Below are positions 17,599 to 64,000 of a stretch of DNA of 64,000 nucleotides, one piece after another (within the stretch, counting starts at the first letter, position 1; every line of letters begins with the position of its first letter). The stretch is from Escherichia phage Ec_YwIITB1, in the sequence record PQ356294.1; one strand, 5' to 3'. The position numbers and the translations under genes are program-made. The notes under the pieces were generated by a model that was not told the DNA's origin, searched no databases, and saw only the letters and a program-made list of their open reading frames with translations.

Positions 17599-18201
17599 TT
17601 ATAGATTAAATCCTTCAAAATCAAGAGTATAGATAGTGTATGTTGAATACTTTTTATACTCGTATCTATCCGCAATTCTAAATACACTTCCAGCTGGTAT
17701 CATTACTTCTTGTTCATCTGAAACTAATTCCATATTACGATAACGATGGCTATCCGGAAATTTAAAACTCGGGCTATATTCTTTACAACGTAAAGCTTTT
17801 ATAGCATACTCCTGGAAATTAAACACCATAGGAGCTTTGAATTCAAAAATAACTTGTGTATTGTATTCTAATCCAGAAGCAAAATGTAGAGCTATATTTT
17901 TATCATATGAAGCTGATACTACTTTATCAAATGTAATAATATCAATTCCTTGATTTAACACCTGCTTAGTCTCAACTGGAACACCTCTCCAAAGAGGTTT
18001 ATCGTTTGGTTCCAAACGAGATTTGATTATTTCATTTAACCAAGAATGATCGTCTGGCTTATTAGTAATACAATGAATTAAAAGTTCAATTTCAGATAAA
18101 TTAAATCCTTCGGAAAGTAATTCTTCACGAATAGAAGCACGCACGGATGCATCCATTGATTTTATTTTAAAATCTTTTAATTGCATTGCTGAATATTTCA
18201 T
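17599..18201 (-). CDS. modA: ADP-ribosyltransferase ModA
   Basis: 200-aa ORF, adjacent paralog of the next gene; T4 order srd-modA-modB. Confidence 0.8.
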   Translation of the reverse strand: MKYSAMQLKDFKIKSMDASVRASIREELLSEGFNLSEIELLIHCITNKPDDHSWLNEIIKSRLEPNDKPLWRGVPVETKQVLNQGIDIITFDKVVSASYDKNIALHFASGLEYNTQVIFEFKAPMVFNFQEYAIKALRCKEYSPSFKFPDSHRYRNMELVSDEQEVMIPAGSVFRIADRYEYKKYSTYTIYTLDFEGFNL

Positions 18202-18821
18202 TCAACTACCTCAATATCATACACTTTAAATGTTCCAAATGAATCGTGTAATTTTTCTTTTGAAATAGAAGTTATTTTATACTTTCCAATTGGAATCATC
18301 CATTCTTGTTCACGTACAATCATCATTAAGTTATCAGTACGTTCTGAATCTAATCCATCAGTATCTTCATATGTATACTTAAACTCAGTATTAGGAGAAG
18401 AAAGTATAATATCACTGATATGGTCAGAATAATTAAAAGCTTTATCAGTTTTTAAGCGAAATATTATTTCAGTGGAATATTCAACATAAGAAAAACCACA
18501 TGCTGTGTGCAAACTAGTAGTAAATGAATCTACTCTGTTCGTTGAAAACACTTCTCCGATTTGTAAATCTTTAATGAGTTCTTTTGTCGATTTTGATATA
18601 CCACGATATAGCTGATAAGGCGATTTAGTTAAATGCTTTTTAACGATTTTATTCAACTGCTGATGAAGAGCTTCATTCTTTTTGGCTTCCATACATTGCC
18701 AAAGAATTGACTGTTCAAAGTCAGTAAATTTTTCACAGACCTTTTTATACATATCATATTGAAAATCGACACTTTCAGCTTTTATAGATAACTGTTCAAC
18801 ATCTGCAAGATTAATAATCAT
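18198..18821 (-). CDS. modB: ADP-ribosyltransferase ModB
   Basis: 207-aa paralog of ModA with ATGA overlap. Confidence 0.8.
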   Translation of the reverse strand: MIINLADVEQLSIKAESVDFQYDMYKKVCEKFTDFEQSILWQCMEAKKNEALHQQLNKIVKKHLTKSPYQLYRGISKSTKELIKDLQIGEVFSTNRVDSFTTSLHTACGFSYVEYSTEIIFRLKTDKAFNYSDHISDIILSSPNTEFKYTYEDTDGLDSERTDNLMMIVREQEWMIPIGKYKITSISKEKLHDSFGTFKVYDIEVVE

Positions 18822-20379: not shown

Positions 20380-20714
20380 TCACAAGATGTAGATGAACAA
20401 CTAAAATCACAAGAACTTCCACACGAATCACCCGTCCACACATGAACAGGAACATTAGTATCATATGAATCAGAACTAGACTGTGTATTCTGCGTATTAG
20501 ATGATGTAGGTGTTGACCAACGCCAAGGATTTTTATAATATTCTTGGGCTTCTTCATAAGTCATAGTAACTGCTTCTACTGTTCCATCTCCCATATAAAC
20601 ATATTCAACTACAGTTAAAGAAAGGTAGTCATTTGAAATAGGAACTACACCTTCTCCGGGAGTCGTAGAGAAAAAATCCGTAAAGAAACTTTTAAACCAA
20701 TTAAAGATAAACAT
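20376..20714 (-). CDS. hypothetical protein with Cys/Ser-rich C-terminus (112 aa)
   Basis: ORF ending ...[18 protein letters not shown]. Confidence 0.5.
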
Positions 20715-20926
20715 TACAAAAAGCCTCTTTGAAATTCGACTCTTTGAAATCCACCCCAGTCAGTGTATCGCATTTCAGCATTGAACTCGACTGAACCATC
20801 TGCATGCATCATGAATGAATGCGTGACGATATCACAATCCCAGCTTTTCATACCCCATTTATCAGAGATAGCTTTATCAAGAACCTTCTGGAGGTCTTCA
20901 TTTGGTTTAATCCAGCGATTTAACAT
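20714..20926 (-). CDS. hypothetical protein (70 aa)
   Basis: First ORF downstream of the early promoter at about 20953..20983. Confidence 0.5.
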   Translation of the reverse strand: MLNRWIKPNEDLQKVLDKAISDKWGMKSWDCDIVTHSFMMHADGSVEFNAEMRYTDWGGFQRVEFQRGFL

Positions 20927-21016: not shown

Positions 21017-21027
21017 TTGAATTATTA

Positions 21028-21264
21028 ACCACCTATTTCTGTAGGCGTAAACATTGCAGCATTCTTAGTTTTCCAATCAGCTGCATCAGAAACTACGGTA
21101 GAATATGCTGCCTTTTCAGAAGGAAAGATTTGATAATGAGAATCTGCGATACGATGCTCGTTAGAATAAATTTCAAACGGAACAGAAACTTCCATACCTT
21201 TAACTTCTTTGCCTTCACCTGCTGGATGAGTAAAGGTCTTGATGTTAACGAAACCACCATAATA
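21028..21264 (-). pseudogene. soc: soc (small outer capsid protein) with start codon out of frame
   Basis: Frame encodes Soc-like ...GGFVNIKTF...HYQIFPSEKAAYSTV...AAMFTPTEIGG but lacks an in-frame start; the SD-proximal ATG at 21260 is offset by one base after a G-run. Confidence 0.6.
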
Positions 21265-23287: not shown

Positions 23288-23644
23288 TTAACCTCTATTC
23301 ATAAAAGCATTAAAAATTTGGTCATCAATCGATGGAATAGCAACCTTTTCGGCATCATTTAGCAAATCATTAATTTCATCAGATAGCATAACACATGTGC
23401 CTTTATTTCCTGTAATTGTTACTGCACAATTACGAACGTTTTCTTTATTAAATTTTAGGTTAATATTTTCGTAATGAAAATCCTTTAATGCTGAATATAT
23501 TTTTAAAATAAAATTGTCTTTTACTACAATAAATCCAACCTCACTATTAAAACGCGGTTCATGGAAGCTGTAATAAATCTTTTCATCTATGAAATCATAT
23601 GAAATTTTTTCCATTTTTAAATATGAAAATTCAGAACTGTACAT
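23288..23644 (-). CDS. 61.2: hypothetical protein (118 aa), 61.2-position
   Basis: Minus-strand ORF immediately downstream of sp in the 61.x cluster. Confidence 0.5.
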   Translation of the reverse strand: MYSSEFSYLKMEKISYDFIDEKIYYSFHEPRFNSEVGFIVVKDNFILKIYSALKDFHYENINLKFNKENVRNCAVTITGNKGTCVMLSDEINDLLNDAEKVAIPSIDDQIFNAFMNRG

Positions 23645-27537: not shown

Positions 27538-28386
27538 TTAATCAACTGCTATTGGATGAATAGCATTAAACTTATGAAACGCTTCTGATTTTTCTTTGCG
27601 CGAAACACACATGCGAAGAACCTTTAATGGCTCGTCTTCTTCACCTAATGATTTTCGTTTTTCAATATTAGAAGTTTTCCAACGAGCTTGCTCTGGAAAC
27701 TCTCTATTGATTTGCTCAAGCGCTCTATTATGTTTAGAATTACTACGAATTGAGCTACATCCGCCAGGAGCTTGCGCTTTTCCAGATACAACCAGATATT
27801 TGAACAAGGCCAAATGCGGATAACCTTGATTAATTAAATTGAGAAATGCATACATATCTTCGCATAAATCAATTTTTCCATACCCAATTTGTTCTGTTGT
27901 AAGTTTCCCGAGGTCATACCAAGTATTCGTGAATCCATATGAATTTTCACGATAATTACCCCAAGATGAAGTAATTTTAAAAATTGGTAAACGAGCATGA
28001 CCATGATAATACCCGCAATCCATTGCATCTTCAACGTATTGAATCAATTCATAGAACTGTTCACGAGTTAATTGATTAATTTTATCTACGCAGCGACGAT
28101 CATCTTTCTTTCGCATTGAACTCATACGAATAGTAGTATCATCATCAATCATCCAAATTCGTTGACCTGCATACATATCAGTAATCGCTTTACGAGTACC
28201 AGCAATTCCATTAACATCATCAGGAATAGTTATAATTTTAGCTCTAGACCCGTAAGCGTCATAATAAGCTTTTTCTTCATGTTCACGTACTACAATATGT
28301 GGTTCATAATCAGTCGGAAACATATCAAGGGCAGAAACTGCCCCTACACGTTGATAGCTTGGAATTACGAATTGAATCATTTCCAC
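27538..28386 (-). CDS. putative DNA glycosyltransferase (GT-A-like, DDD motif) in the beta-gt locus
   Basis: 282-aa ORF between uvsX and gene 42 with IWMIDDDTTI (DxD-type) motif; not the 351-aa T4 beta-gt as recalled. Confidence 0.6.
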   Translation of the reverse strand: MEMIQFVIPSYQRVGAVSALDMFPTDYEPHIVVREHEEKAYYDAYGSRAKIITIPDDVNGIAGTRKAITDMYAGQRIWMIDDDTTIRMSSMRKKDDRRCVDKINQLTREQFYELIQYVEDAMDCGYYHGHARLPIFKITSSWGNYRENSYGFTNTWYDLGKLTTEQIGYGKIDLCEDMYAFLNLINQGYPHLALFKYLVVSGKAQAPGGCSSIRSNSKHNRALEQINREFPEQARWKTSNIEKRKSLGEEDEPLKVLRMCVSRKEKSEAFHKFNAIHPIAVD

Positions 28387-48638: not shown

Positions 48639-49028
48639 TTAATTTCGCAATTTATTAAGTTCTTCGTAATCAATCCAGGATTCTAGTCCTGATGGCAAAT
48701 CAGATTCAATTTCCCAAAGAAGCTCTTCAATTTTCTGAAGACGATCTAATTCTTCAGCAGGAATAGTAACCATTGACGGAGTTCTTGATACGCTAATATC
48801 GTAAATCATATTTACCCCCAGTTTGACCATACAATCGCCGTATTTCCATTTAGAAATAGACTTTTCACCATTAGAATAATAAACTTCGAGTTTAGCACGG
48901 TTATTTTTAATTTGAATAACCTTTGCTGTCATCAAAGTTCCATACCCATAGTAAACTGCGACTTCATCACCTACATATACCGCGCTTCCGCGGTAGTCAT
49001 GGATATAATCAGTTCCTTCGAGCATCAT
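48639..49028 (-). CDS. hypothetical protein (129 aa)
   Basis: ATGA-coupled to nrdC. Confidence 0.5.
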   Translation of the reverse strand: MMLEGTDYIHDYRGSAVYVGDEVAVYYGYGTLMTAKVIQIKNNRAKLEVYYSNGEKSISKWKYGDCMVKLGVNMIYDISVSRTPSMVTIPAEELDRLQKIEELLWEIESDLPSGLESWIDYEELNKLRN

Positions 49029-49589: not shown

Positions 49590-49875
49590 ATCTGTGTTTA
49601 CAATGGCGACATTTATAACGAAGATTATTAGTCTGCCAATGGACTAATTGCACCTGTTCAGTTCCACACTCAGGGCAATTAGGAACGTTTTTAGAAGCCC
49701 TTTCGCGACGTTCAACCATGACCATTACGGAATCCCAATTAATAGGGCTGCTATAATCATCACAACCGTGAATCTTTCCACGCATTTCCAGATCGTCTTC
49801 TTCACCAGCCATAATAATTTTAATTAGACTAGAATTACTTGAAGTTGCAATGTCTTCTAATAGACGCTTTTTCAT
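49534..49875 (-). CDS. zinc-ribbon protein (113 aa)
   Basis: CPECG...CRHCKH four-cysteine motif. Confidence 0.5.
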
Positions 49876-50801
49876 TTCAATACCTCAATAGCATTACGTA
49901 AACCATTTGCTTTTGCATTAAGAGCTTTTAACAATTTGGTGTGTTCTGCAATTTGGGCTTCAACTTCAATTAAACGAGCATTGAGATATTCGCGTTCTTC
50001 GCTCAGGTTATCAACCTTTTCTACTTTAGGTTCTTTTACAGCTGTCTTATATGTATTAGGGTTCTTCAGTTTAATTAGAATGCGTGAACTGTATAACATT
50101 GAACCATTATCTTCGGTTTCATCATACATTTCTACTACGTCCATGATTTTTAACATCATGCGAAGTTTATAAGACAACGAACGAATAGTTTTGTTGTGCT
50201 TATTAATTTCTTTAGCGTTCATGGTGCCAAGATTACGTGAGTAATAATAAGGAACCTGGATATTAATTAGTACTGATGAACCACCTGGCTTATGTGTTAC
50301 TTCATCAGCAATAACCCAGTCCTTAACATGAACTGTATTTGTACGGTCATCGCCCATGGTAAACAGTTTGCGAGCATGCTTAAAAAGCATATTCACTTGG
50401 TCATTGAATTGACAAGCGAATTTATCAGCAAATTTAGTTTCAGGAATGGTAGATAACCAATCAGCCAAGTGGGTCTTTTTAACATCGTTAACAATAGTAA
50501 ATTCAACCAAATCGGTTATAGATGTTGCAGATTTAATGAAGCTTGGCTTCATAAAGTTTTTAATGTTCTCGTGAGCTACAGTAGAAGATAACATACGAGA
50601 ACGTTTAAACCATTCAAGCAAATTGCCCAACGAATGAGAATAAGCGTTCTGAGTATCTTTACAGATATGATTTTCCTGGCCAACATATTGAAGGAAATCA
50701 CGAAGAATATTATTGATTACTGCTCTGTGTCCGATATTATAATTACGATGTTTAGTAATAAGGCTGTCAAAATAATCAATATAATGTTTACGAGTTTTCA
50801 T
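49872..50801 (-). CDS. hypothetical protein (309 aa) with C-terminal coiled coil
   Basis: Long ORF in the nrdC.x region. Confidence 0.6.
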   Translation of the reverse strand: MKTRKHYIDYFDSLITKHRNYNIGHRAVINNILRDFLQYVGQENHICKDTQNAYSHSLGNLLEWFKRSRMLSSTVAHENIKNFMKPSFIKSATSITDLVEFTIVNDVKKTHLADWLSTIPETKFADKFACQFNDQVNMLFKHARKLFTMGDDRTNTVHVKDWVIADEVTHKPGGSSVLINIQVPYYYSRNLGTMNAKEINKHNKTIRSLSYKLRMMLKIMDVVEMYDETEDNGSMLYSSRILIKLKNPNTYKTAVKEPKVEKVDNLSEEREYLNARLIEVEAQIAEHTKLLKALNAKANGLRNAIEVLK

Positions 50802-61067: not shown

Positions 61068-61280
61068 TCATTTTTGTCCTGTATTTACTTTATGCCGATG
61101 CACGGCCTTAACTTTATCAAGGTATTTTTCAAAATTTCGCAATCTAGTATAGTCTGCCGGAGATTGGTTGAGTGATACTTCTCGACGCAAAGCTGAAATG
61201 ATATTTCCAACTTCCCTACGAATTTCATCTAATTGAAGAACAGTAAGATTGCGAAGTTGCTTTTCAGTTAATTGTAGCAT
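61068..61280 (-). CDS. rI.1: rI.1-like protein
   Basis: 70-aa ORF between tk and rI. Confidence 0.55.
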
Positions 61281-61322
61281 ATATACCCCTTTAGTTAGAT
61301 AAACCTATTTATAACTTTTGCA

Positions 61323-61904
61323 CTAACCAAGCTTTTTAGTTAATTCATTCCAATGTTTTCTACACAAAGAAACATAAATTTCATCACCAATACAGATTTG
61401 ATTACCTTCTTTAACTGGCGTTCCATCTTCCATTAATCGAGCTGTCATAATAGCTTTTTTACCACAATGACAAACTGCTTTTAGTTCAATAAGTTTATCT
61501 GCAATCGCCAAAAGTTCTTTAGAACCTTCAAATAATTTTCCAGCGAAATCAGTCCTTAGTCCATAAGCCATAACAGGAACATTATATGTATCGACAATTC
61601 GGCTTAATTGATGCACCTGTTCAGTTTTTAAAAACTGGGCTTCATCTACAAATACACAATGAATATCTTTTTGTGCTTCAGCCCATTTATAGAACTCAAA
61701 AATATCCATATCATCCGTAATAATATTCGCTTCCTGCTTAATTCCAATGCGAGAAACGACTTCACAGACAGAATCACGAGTATCAATAGCAGGCTTAAGA
61801 ACTAATACACCCATTCCGCGTTCTTTATAATTATGCGCAGCAGTCAAAAGAGAAGCAGATTTTCCAGCATTCATTGCTGCGTAAGTAAAAATTAAACTCG
61901 CCAT
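61323..61904 (-). CDS. tk: thymidine kinase
   Basis: 193-aa ORF with P-loop (AAMNAGKS) and C-terminal Zn-binding CxxC pairs; T4 Tk length. Confidence 0.92.
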   Translation of the reverse strand: MASLIFTYAAMNAGKSASLLTAAHNYKERGMGVLVLKPAIDTRDSVCEVVSRIGIKQEANIITDDMDIFEFYKWAEAQKDIHCVFVDEAQFLKTEQVHQLSRIVDTYNVPVMAYGLRTDFAGKLFEGSKELLAIADKLIELKAVCHCGKKAIMTARLMEDGTPVKEGNQICIGDEIYVSLCRKHWNELTKKLG

Positions 61905-61905
61905 C

Positions 61906-62094
61906 TTAGTCCTTAGTTAAATTTTCTAAATATGTTTCTAAATCATTTTCAGCTTTATCGATAGATTTTACTAATTCGTAATATGTTTCGGCATCTCCGT
62001 ATTCAGAAGATATTTCAAAAGACAAATCCTTTTCTAAACTAATAATTTCACCAACTAAAAATAATATTTCGTTCTTTTGTTCGCGAGTAATCAT
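61906..62094 (-). CDS. small helical protein (62 aa), paralog family member
   Basis: MITREQKNEILFLV...LETYLENL. Confidence 0.5.
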   Translation of the reverse strand: MITREQKNEILFLVGEIISLEKDLSFEISSEYGDAETYYELVKSIDKAENDLETYLENLTKD

Positions 62095-62276
62095 AAGGAA
62101 TTTATATAATTAATAAGTTCTTGTTCTTTATCGTCGAAATCTTTACACAGTTCTTCGTATTCGTCGGTATTAAAAGGACCGCATTCATCACAAACTTTTT
62201 CCAATTCGCTATTTTTATCCATAACTTCGTGAATAAGAGAAAATAGTCTGTCTTTTTGTTCTTTGCTTAGGCTCAC
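62091..62276 (-). CDS. small helical protein (61 aa), paralog family member
   Basis: MSLSKEQKDRLFSLI...LINYINSL. Confidence 0.5.
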   Translation of the reverse strand: MSLSKEQKDRLFSLIHEVMDKNSELEKVCDECGPFNTDEYEELCKDFDDKEQELINYINSL

Positions 62277-62445
62277 AGTATGTCAATCCCCAAAAGTTTT
62301 AAAATGACTCGTTTCTGATTCATAACCGCTACGATTGAATGACCGTTGGGGTCTTTTTGACCTGATCCAATTATAAATCCTTTTTGTGCGGAAAGTTCAA
62401 TCAAAACATCAAGTTCACGTAATAATTGATATTTTAAATCATCGT

Positions 62446-62673
62446 TCATTTTGGTTTACCTTCTTTAACGAAATCGGGATAAGGATAAAATCCTGAATAA
62501 AATCCTTCACCTTTATGATTGATACATCCTTTATTAGAACAATAGCACCAATAATCGAAATCACAAGCCATTTCATCATTACATAAAGCAAAAACAACTG
62601 GCCATTTACACTTTTCGCAGTGGGCATTTTTAAGAATACTAGTTTGGCTCATAACCATGTAACCTTTAAACAA
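62446..62673 (-). CDS. small Cys-rich (zinc-binding) protein (75 aa)
   Basis: CEKC...C...C.C...C cysteine pattern. Confidence 0.5.
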   Translation of the reverse strand: MFKGYMVMSQTSILKNAHCEKCKWPVVFALCNDEMACDFDYWCYCSNKGCINHKGEGFYSGFYPYPDFVKEGKPK

Positions 62674-62861
62674 TATTCTTCTACGTGCTGTTTACGACCT
62701 TTCTTATCAATAAAGGTATATTCAACGAATGTTCCAATATAGTCTTTATCTACACCATGCGGACTATTAATTGGACATTTAGTACGGCAAATGCGTTCCC
62801 ATTGACGAATAATTTCCACTTTGTTTTTAGGATCAAACGGATGCGGGTAATGTACTTTCAT
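62649..62861 (-). CDS. hypothetical protein (70 aa)
   Basis: Minus-strand ORF. Confidence 0.45.
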   Translation of the reverse strand: MKVHYPHPFDPKNKVEIIRQWERICRTKCPINSPHGVDKDYIGTFVEYTFIDKKGRKQHVEEYCLKVTWL

Positions 62862-63312
62862 AATCCACCACTATTAAATCAATATCAGGAGTAAACATGT
62901 CGATTAATTTAGAAACCTTATCCCAATCGCCGCCTGCAATACCACAACCGATACGTGGAATGTAAATTACTGGTTTAAACAAAAGGGTTTCTGCCTGTAG
63001 ATTTAATTCTATCATGCAGTTTACTAAAGCACCATAATCAAGATTAGGACCCGGTTCGTATTGTGTATACAAATTATAGCACATACTAAATCCTGTAGGA
63101 TTATGTTTAAAAACAATAGACATATCACCTAATTTATCACGAGAACCGTACTCGGTAGTGGTTTTATCTATTTCTAAAATTTTGGGATAGGCTCTTGCTA
63201 ATTGACCTGCTACGCCAGAGCCCATTGTGTGGAAGCAATTACACCCGTGCGCAATAATATTACCTTGAAGAAATAGGGCGACAATATCGCCCTTGATATA
63301 TTTTACAATCAT
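62833..63312 (-). CDS. macrodomain-like protein (TARG1/DarG-type signature)
   Basis: 159-aa ORF with KGDIV near the N-terminus and IAHGCNCFHTMGSGVAGQLA, resembling the TARG1/DarG macrodomain signature (GDLF...LAHCIS.D..MGAGIA). Confidence 0.55.
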   Translation of the reverse strand: MIVKYIKGDIVALFLQGNIIAHGCNCFHTMGSGVAGQLARAYPKILEIDKTTTEYGSRDKLGDMSIVFKHNPTGFSMCYNLYTQYEPGPNLDYGALVNCMIELNLQAETLLFKPVIYIPRIGCGIAGGDWDKVSKLIDMFTPDIDLIVVDYESTLPASV

Positions 63313-63650
63313 CTAGTACTCAATCCTCGATTATAAGAATCTACTAAACGGTCAACCATTGAATGACAAGCGGCTTTATCTTTCTCCTCCGCAACTGAAC
63401 ATTCTAAGGTATTCCACTTTTTAGCATATCGTTTTAACAATGTATCATTTTTGTATCTGCTTGATTTATCTCTTTCTCCGTCTTTATATGCATATATTAA
63501 TTTCTGCGCAAATTCAGCTTGGCATGCTTTATTTTTCCCACAATAATCCGCGGCAGTACGGTTTACATACTCTCTAATTTCAGTATATGATGTATCTGCT
63601 AACGCAGAAAATGAAATTAATCCTATACATAAAACCAAAATTTTAGTCAT
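63309..63650 (-). CDS. secreted Cys-containing protein (113 aa)
   Basis: N-terminal signal peptide MTKILVLCIGLISFSALA and four cysteines. Confidence 0.5.
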   Translation of the reverse strand: MTKILVLCIGLISFSALADTSYTEIREYVNRTAADYCGKNKACQAEFAQKLIYAYKDGERDKSSRYKNDTLLKRYAKKWNTLECSVAEEKDKAACHSMVDRLVDSYNRGLSTR

Positions 63651-64000
63651 TTACTATTTCCAAAAGTTTATTGTTTTTAAGGTAATTAGCCTTTTCTAGG
63701 ACTTCAGAAGCATATTTAGAACCTGCTTTAACATTCCATCCCGAATTATAAGAGGATATCGCCTTTCTTATATCACCCTTATGTATATTTAACCAATAAG
63801 AAAGTTCAATGTACGCCCAGGAAGCTGAATTGGACCGTTTATTCAACATTCTTTTTATTTCAGCATCGGTCATATTATAACCAAGTTCCTTGACTCTCGC
63901 TCGCATAGTAGGCAAATAATTTTGGAACATTCCATAGGCATGATGCTTTGGTTTAGATTTTAAATTAACTCCGGCAGAGCTTTCTTGCCACAAAATAGCA
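63643..64000 (-). CDS. lytic transglycosylase (SLT-domain)-like protein, 5' end beyond window
   Basis: Contains ESSAGV...AYGMFQ, resembling the SLT catalytic E-S...GLMQ motif; ORF runs off the window edge. Confidence 0.5.
   Translation of the reverse strand, partial: AILWQESSAGVNLKSKPKHHAYGMFQNYLPTMRARVKELGYNMTDAEIKRMLNKRSNSASWAYIELSYWLNIHKGDIRKAISSYNSGWNVKAGSKYASEVLEKANYLKNNKLLEIVND

Follow-up and report, generated by a model that had tools for sequence, protein, structure and literature searches.

The window, a 64,000-nucleotide stretch of Escherichia phage Ec_YwIITB1 (PQ356294.1), is a Tequatrovirus (T4-like) genome, and our analysis suggests that one of its genes encodes a stand-alone macrodomain protein that probably acts as an anti-DarTG2 DNA ADP-ribosylglycohydrolase. 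Judged by sequence and synteny, the gene is tk.4, named adfM, for anti-DarT factor Macrodomain, in a preprint of November 2025 that used transposons to map which phage genes are essential (bioRxiv 10.1101/2025.11.20.689424). What the present analysis adds is a glutamine-type active site, the finding that the protein qualifies neither as a DarG nor as a TARG1, its distinction from the AdfM of phage PhiKZ, and a sharply bounded allele replacement.

The tk.4 locus and its macrodomain

The open reading frame (ORF) list contains a 159-residue frame, ATG to stop, on the minus strand. A first-pass annotation had described this frame without its strand, together with a KGDIV motif near the N-terminus and a longer motif after it; both are present, KGDIV as residues 7-11 and IAHGCNCFHTMGSGVAGQLA as residues 20-39. 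The neighbourhood consists of rI, tk, small tk.x ORFs, vs, the SLT-domain gene vs.1 and regB, and the position between tk.3 and vs is the same in T4 and in Escherichia phage Ec_MI-02. From tk to vs.1 the window shares 97.9% identity with Shigella phage pSs-1 and with Ec_MI-02, and 763 phage records match this stretch. The gene and its overlaps with both neighbours are as follows.

62833..63312, minus strand: tk.4 / adfM coding sequence, stand-alone macrodomain protein, 159 aa (ORF, Pfam Macro, phrog_335, identity to T4 Tk.4, synteny)
63309..63312, minus strand: ATGA overlap of the vs stop codon and the tk.4 start codon (ORF coordinates and sequence)
62833..62861, minus strand: 29-nt overlap of the tk.4 3' end with the start of tk.3, a DUF7202 gene at 62649..62861 (ORF coordinates, Pfam)

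Because the vs stop and the tk.4 start overlap, translational coupling of tk.4 to vs and co-transcription of the two genes are suggested. A promoter scan of 61200-64000 returned seven sigma-70-like sites against 13.0 in shuffled sequences, none of them convincingly upstream of tk.4. The overlap with tk.3 measures 29 nt in the window and 4 nt in T4. Between tk.2 and tk.3 lies a 369-bp insertion relative to T4 (62277..62645) with two small ORFs that Ec_MI-02 has as well, one at 62273..62449 (58 aa, phrog_3452), the other at 62446..62673 (75 aa, Pfam PF23895 'Phage zinc binding domain', E=3e-29).

The product matches phrog_335 (E=4e-71) and is 58% identical to T4 Tk.4 (NP_049723) in a gapless alignment over 155 aa (E=8e-71). 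The two proteins, encoded at the same locus, are identical in their first 14 residues and share the motifs HGCNCFHTMGSGVAGQL, NLYTQ and PGPN, with PRIG(C/A)GI nearly shared, but 42% of the residues differ and the window protein, with 159 aa instead of 155, is four residues longer at the C-terminus. The T4 record, in which tk.4 likewise separates tk.3 from vs, describes tk.4 as 'phosphatase; contains A1pp phosphatase motif', an assignment that goes back to at least 2006 (PMC1524935), and other phage records label the gene 'macro domain protein' or 'Poa1p-like'. The first-pass annotation had named no characterised macrodomain enzyme at this locus in T4; this needs correcting, since tk.4 has carried the A1pp label for about 20 years and was assigned a function in 2025.

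That the protein is a macrodomain resembling those of TARG1 and DarG, as the first-pass annotation had claimed, is borne out well beyond chance by Pfam, phmmer and a family profile. The match to Pfam Macro (PF01661) spans model positions 2-117 of 118 and, at 33.8 bits (E=3.7e-8), clears the gathering score of 22. A single-sequence phmmer search of the PDB finds BT1257 (1e-10), Poa1p (2e-9), SCO6735 (8e-8), M. tuberculosis DarG (2.5e-5) and TARG1 (0.01). With a family profile, based on an alignment of the window protein and 59 database homologues of 40-79% identity (60 sequences), the E-values become 4e-19 for BT1257, 4e-17 for TARG1 (aligned over the full length), 8e-15 for SCO6735 and 5e-12 for M. 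tuberculosis DarG. The confident AlphaFold2 model computed from the same alignment (pLDDT 94.1, pTM 0.89) has an alpha/beta macro fold, and a Foldseek comparison with the PDB, which the first-pass annotation had proposed, ranks human TARG1/OARD1 (PDB 4J5R/4J5S; E=1e-9, TM 0.72-0.82) at the top, followed by Poa1p, T. aquaticus DarG, BT1257 and M. tuberculosis DarG, with E-values of 1e-9 to 1e-7 and TM scores of 0.67-0.78 given for these top ranks together. On the strength of this ranking, the predicted structure places the window protein in the ALC1-like class of macrodomains (TARG1, DarG, Poa1p, SCO6735/BT1257); its nearest structure and sequence neighbours are of this class, and there is a clear gap to MacroD-type macrodomains.

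Glutamine at the position of the catalytic lysine

Both glycine-rich loops of the fold are present, MGSGVA at residues 30-35 and PRIGCGIAGG at residues 119-128. The predicted loops and the codon of greatest interest map to the following positions.

63205..63255, minus strand: first predicted ADP-ribose-binding loop, residues 20-36, IAHGCNCFHTMGSGVAG (alignment, per-column counts)
62923..62958, minus strand: second predicted loop, diphosphate-binding, residues 119-130, PRIGCGIAGGDW (alignment, per-column counts)
63061..63063, minus strand: CAA codon of Gln84, at the catalytic-lysine position of TARG1 (K84) and DarG (K80) (profile alignment)

Invariant throughout the 60-sequence family are H22, G23, N25, C26, G33 and A35 in the first loop, P119, G122, G124 and W130 in the second, and G8, D49, N80 and Y82 elsewhere. 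The first loop aligns to LAHCISEDCRMGAGIA of TARG1 and IHSCNCNGSWGGGIA of Poa1p. H22 and T29 fall opposite H23 and S30 of Poa1p, which we take to be the residues underlying its Appr1p phosphatase activity. Judged by eye, N25 corresponds to N23 of PhiKZ AdfM (ITVNVVGVMGAGLA), the hhalign alignment starting one column later.

Conservation of the TARG1 catalytic Lys/Asp pair had been named as a check in the first-pass annotation, and the pair is not kept. In the alignment of the family profile with TARG1, which is gapless over the catalytic loop, Gln84 stands opposite Lys84 and Ala126 opposite Asp125; the glutamine is found in 60 of 60 family members and the alanine in 55, with glycine in the remainder. 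Gln84 also aligns with the glutamine of the BT1257 motif 'NMIGQH'. K80 of DarG, K84 of TARG1 and Gln85 of SCO6735 occupy equivalent positions, and SCO6735, which lacks both the TARG1 dyad and the DarG lysine, efficiently strips ADP-ribose from DNA thymidine and rescues cells from DarT, the Q85A variant being inactive on ADPr-thymidine DNA (PMC9411070). The shared glutamine points to a catalytic centre of the SCO6735 type, not the lysine of DarG and TARG1, in the whole Tk.4 family.

The likeness to SCO6735 and BT1257, both stand-alone ALC1-like proteins (PDB 5E3B and 2FG1/2AFC), has limits. Tk.4 is phage-encoded, and it lacks their 'mobile loop', which is 5-6 residues longer (a 6-residue insertion in BT1257 relative to the Tk.4 profile) and carries Lys89 and Lys93, residues to which the DNA-directed activity of SCO6735 has in part been ascribed (PMC9411070). 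In the window allele the corresponding loop after Gln84, YEPGPNLDY, has the length of the TARG1 loop and contains neither lysine nor arginine; in some members of the family, positions 89-91 do include an Arg or Lys. The window protein as a whole is acidic (pI 5.0).

DarG of DarTG2 systems (T. aquaticus and M. tuberculosis; PDB 5M31 and 5M3I) differs from Tk.4 in having the catalytic Lys80 where Tk.4 has glutamine. Against the NCBIfam DarG equivalog NF048014 the window protein scores 28.9 bits, the cutoff being 250, over model positions 2-142 of 338; against the PADLOC DarG model (PDLC02990) it scores 28.1 bits over positions 3-144 of 329, compared with 36 bits for T4 Tk.4 and 132.9 bits for PhiKZ gp104. 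By both models, the C-terminal DarT-binding domain of DarG (about 330 aa) is absent from the 159-residue protein, and no darT adjoins tk.4 in the window, where the neighbours are tk.3 and vs. As far as sequence can tell, Tk.4 would function like DarG yet is not a member of the DarG family. For an orphan antitoxin recently captured from a DarTG2 operon we found no sign in relatives on long contigs: three of three (one on a Pelagimonas chromosome, the others in phage-like surroundings, accompanied by UvsY and RNA ligase in one case and by Acb5 and RNR in the other) have no DarT neighbour. This three-relative sample neither favours nor excludes an ancient DarG origin of tk.4.

PhiKZ gp104, also called AdfM, is likewise a stand-alone phage macrodomain that counters DarTG2, with Asn23 as the apparent counterpart of N25. 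It is nevertheless remote from Tk.4 (BLASTP E=0.001 over 33 residues, hhalign 96.5%) and retains a lysine of the DarG type, in 'PTKDNW', where Tk.4 has glutamine; it enters the phage nucleus by import, and its activity has been proven biochemically (PMC13309987). The remote relationship and the DarG-type lysine suggest that the name AdfM now spans two separate macrodomain lineages.

Allele replacement at tk.4 and divergence at a second anti-DarT locus

Divergence from T4 is confined to a segment that nearly coincides with the gene.

About 62820..63276, no strand assigned: segment diverged from T4, about 63% nucleotide identity, with flanks at 97-100% (pairwise DNA alignment, 30-nt sliding identity)

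At the DNA level, tk (96.9%), tk.1 (99.5%), vs (97.3%) and vs.1 (96.6%) are close to T4. Within tk.4, identity is complete (100%) over the first 12 codons and falls to 62.6% over codons 13-159, a level at which synonymous sites are saturated. We read this as a gene-sized allele replacement whose recombination boundaries lie in tk.3 on one side and in the conserved start of tk.4 on the other. Where T4 identity resumes, in tk.4 codons 7-13, the sequence contains a perfect 7-bp inverted repeat (63275..63293, AGGGCGA-tattg-TCGCCCT) that scored as terminator-like in both orientations. Compared with shuffled sequences, the 111 nt around it show no better folding (z=-1.16), so the hairpin was discarded; the conserved KGDIVAL codons explain it most simply.

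Among the 103 minus-strand ORFs of the window that have a T4 homologue (median identity 96.6%), tk.4 is the fourth most diverged. Other strongly diverged ORFs, all on the minus strand, are a soc-like ORF (21025..21195, 47%), mrh.2 (20714..20926, 57%) and nrdC.3 (49872..50801, 60%). A further minus-strand ORF, 48639..49028 (129 aa), is without a homologue in T4 1-70 kb; it matches DUF7205 (E=1e-10) and, weakly and below threshold, the T7 gp5.9 RecBCD-inhibitor family (E=0.0026, 18.1 bits against a cutoff of 24.5).

In the phage collection, the window allele occurs at a protein identity of at least 95% in 274 records and the T4 allele, by the same measure, in 221; a third type, 80-90% identical to T4, is found in 159 records. 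The AlbertHofmann-type allele is 84.5% identical to that of T4. BASEL phages carry the window type too, among them Paracelsus (MZ501096.1, 96.9% nucleotide identity to the window allele) and FriedrichMiescher (MZ501066.1, 94.2%), as does a Dhakavirus. As all conserved active-site positions are kept in the window allele, as they are in that of T4, the window copy is very probably functional. In one T4 record (OL964745.1, 53148..53544), tk.4 is matched in two pieces annotated as two 'macro domain-containing protein' genes, which may reflect a frameshift in a laboratory stock, and a Ser36Gly polymorphism in tk.4 separates T4 sublines (PMC8573959). Both observations fit with tk.4 being dispensable on laboratory hosts.

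The TNTC motif of DarT2 puts glucosyl-hmC beside the modified thymidine, and for this reason we considered that tk.4 alleles might track the type of hmC glucosylation. The idea was rejected. An 843-nt beta-glucosyl-HMC-alpha-glucosyltransferase gene was found in the window, in five of five sampled genomes with a window-type allele and equally in three Tequatroviruses with other tk.4 alleles (RB32, G8 and Lutter); b-gt was seen only in T4, and Mosigvirus KP869111 was uninformative for this comparison. In the window the gene (27538..28380, minus strand) encodes a 280-aa glycosyltransferase between uvsX and gene 42, the site of b-gt in T4; it matches TAGT PF20691 (E=1e-9), and relatives annotate their counterparts as beta-glucosyl-HMC-alpha-glucosyltransferase (T2/T6 type). 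With a T2/T6-type gene in place of b-gt, the DNA sugar modification of the window phage should differ from that of T4.

A second anti-DarT locus is also strongly diverged. The minus-strand ORF at 23288..23644 (118 aa) matches Pfam PF23813, 'Anti-DarT factor A', with 34.3 bits (cutoff 27) over model positions 114-211 only, and its 34% identity to the C-terminal 100 residues of T4 gp61.2 makes it the most diverged of the 103 shared ORFs. Full-length 61.2, which has 208 aa in T4, is absent from the window. The short paralogue occurs alone in ime09 and together with full-length 61.2 in RB32, G4507, JLBYU31 and OQ721910, and full-length 61.2 occurs alone in KRT47 and G8. The histidine near position 165 of T4 gp61.2, presumably equivalent to H164 of AdfA, aligns to Cys73 of the window ORF. 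Since the two anti-DarT loci, tk.4 (58%) and the AdfA-like ORF (34% and truncated), both rank within the top four of the 103 ORFs by divergence, in a backbone of about 97% identity, one may speculate that the anti-DarT genes of T-even phages are exchangeable allele cassettes under arms-race selection, a reading that we put forward tentatively and consider rather doubtful.

Probable protection against DarTG2 and alternative functions

T4 lacking both adfA and adfN stays resistant to DarTG2, from which a further anti-DarTG2 factor had been predicted (PMC11825919). In the preprint, growing a T4 mutant library on DarTG2-expressing cells singled out tk.4 as the one significant gene, and T4 from which tk.4 had been cleanly deleted proved sensitive to DarTG2, the conditions of the study being M9-glucose and 30 C. 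The predicted structure of T4 Tk.4 resembled the macrodomain of M. tuberculosis DarG, and enzymatic removal of ADP-ribose from DNA 'seems likely' to the authors (bioRxiv 10.1101/2025.11.20.689424). PhiKZ gp104 removes DarT2-installed ADP-ribose from an oligonucleotide in vitro, with gel shift as the readout, and its N23A variant is impaired (PMC13309987). The main hypothesis of the first-pass annotation, that the gene counters DarT-type DNA ADP-ribosylation, is supported by the T4 deletion and, in view of the T4 and PhiKZ publications, was correct but already in the literature. For the window protein itself, macro fold, class, synteny with T4 tk.4 and active-site conservation are established, and published genetics show that T4 needs its own allele against DarTG2.

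We infer that the window allele does the same job as its T4 counterpart, and by enzymatic removal of the modification from DNA. The tk.4 product would be made early in infection along with its neighbours vs and tk.3. When host DarTG2 releases the DarT2 toxin, which places ADP-ribose on thymidines of single-stranded phage DNA and so blocks replication, the two conserved loops of the macrodomain (HGCNC...MGSGVA and PRIGCGIAGG) would hold the ADP-ribose while the enzyme hydrolyses the thymidine-ADP-ribose bond, restoring replicable DNA. Catalysis would probably be of the SCO6735 type, with Gln84 positioning the substrate for attack by an activated water, and not dependent on a catalytic lysine as in DarG and TARG1. 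Several points count against this DNA-eraser reading: the T4 allele is the one tested and is only 58% identical; the loop after Gln84 of this acidic protein has no basic residue to match Lys89 and Lys93 of SCO6735; the catalytic lysine of DarG and TARG1 is absent from Tk.4; and Poa1p, which is an ADP-ribose-1''-phosphate phosphatase, resembles Tk.4 in sequence as closely as the DNA erasers do. Moreover, the T4 evidence for adfM function is a preprint, and biochemical proof of DNA de-ADP-ribosylation comes only from distant relatives (PhiKZ AdfM, SCO6735, DarG, TARG1).

The strategy itself has a precedent in AdfN of T4 (gp30.3), likewise an orphan, antitoxin-like eraser that T-even phages direct against DarTG. 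AdfN differs in having the unrelated NADAR fold and in acting on guanine-linked ADP-ribose from DarT1, and it gives no protection against DarTG2 (PMC11825919).

Protection might instead be achieved mainly or partly by direct binding and inhibition of DarT2, with tk.4 alleles matched to DarT2 variants. Catalytically dead SCO6735 (Q85A), DarG (K80A) and TARG1 (K84A) all inhibit DarT in vitro, SCO6735 most strongly (PMC9411070), and the exchange of tk.4 as a gene-sized, highly diverged cassette is a pattern expected for binders; AdfA, a binder, is strongly diverged in the window as well, and a pure eraser should be indifferent to the structure of the toxin, as has been argued for AdfN (PMC11825919). 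Yet Tk.4 has no counterpart of the DarT-binding domain of DarG, and active-site residues that never vary within the family speak for selection on catalysis. We regard inhibition by binding as unlikely.

It is also quite improbable that Tk.4 is a broader or different eraser, acting on RNA, phosphate ends or Glu/Asp-linked proteins against other ADP-ribosyltransferase toxins, with DarT2 reversal as one activity among others or, for the window allele, not the principal one. SCO6735 acts on proteins too and, according to the authors, covers the functional range of TARG1 (PMC9411070), anti-DarT factors have been suggested to detoxify other DNA- or RNA-ADP-ribosylating defences (PMC11825919), and the acidic substrate-side loop is not obviously suited to DNA. 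Against this stands DarTG2 as the only reported conditional phenotype of T4 tk.4.

The old 'A1pp phosphatase' annotation would make Tk.4 a metabolic enzyme that takes the phosphate off ADP-ribose-1''-phosphate or the acetyl group off O-acetyl-ADP-ribose, for which the likeness to Poa1p offers some support. We consider this very unlikely, because it leaves the DarTG2-specific phenotype of T4 unexplained and because Appr1p activity in vitro is a side reaction of many macrodomains. Nor was a KptA/Tpt1 or another source of Appr1p noticed among the genes of the 64-kb window.

Finally, the first-pass annotation had rightly placed ModA and ModB at 17599..18821, since phrog_832 'RNA polymerase ADP-ribosylase' is matched by both ORFs, 17599..18201 (E 2e-33) and 18198..18821 (E 1e-41), and these are syntenic with T4 modA/modB; it had also proposed that the macrodomain might tune the ADP-ribosylation carried out by the two enzymes. 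Arginine-linked ADP-ribose is cleaved by ARH/DraG-type enzymes and, to our knowledge, by no macrodomain. Although the same phage encodes both enzymes, reversal of its own Alt/ModA/ModB modification of host proteins is therefore most improbable, as these enzymes modify arginine (Arg265 of RNA polymerase alpha; PMC8120803), tk.4 lies unlinked about 44 kb away, and the gene is reported as conditionally essential only on a DarTG2 host.

Removal of ADP-ribose from DNA remains our preferred function for Tk.4. Within one phage genus, tk.4 exists as sharply bounded, highly diverged alleles. Should these differ functionally, the 'enzymatic eraser' would not be toxin-independent, contrary to current assumption, and the alleles could differ in the variants of DarT2 or of other ADP-ribosyltransferases that they neutralise, or in their recognition by host sensors. 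In that case, a glutamine-type site combined with a short acidic loop would constitute a third mechanistic variant of DNA de-ADP-ribosylation. DarTG halts phage replication through DNA ADP-ribosylation, and knowing which phages carry an eraser helps to predict host range, for example in phage therapy.
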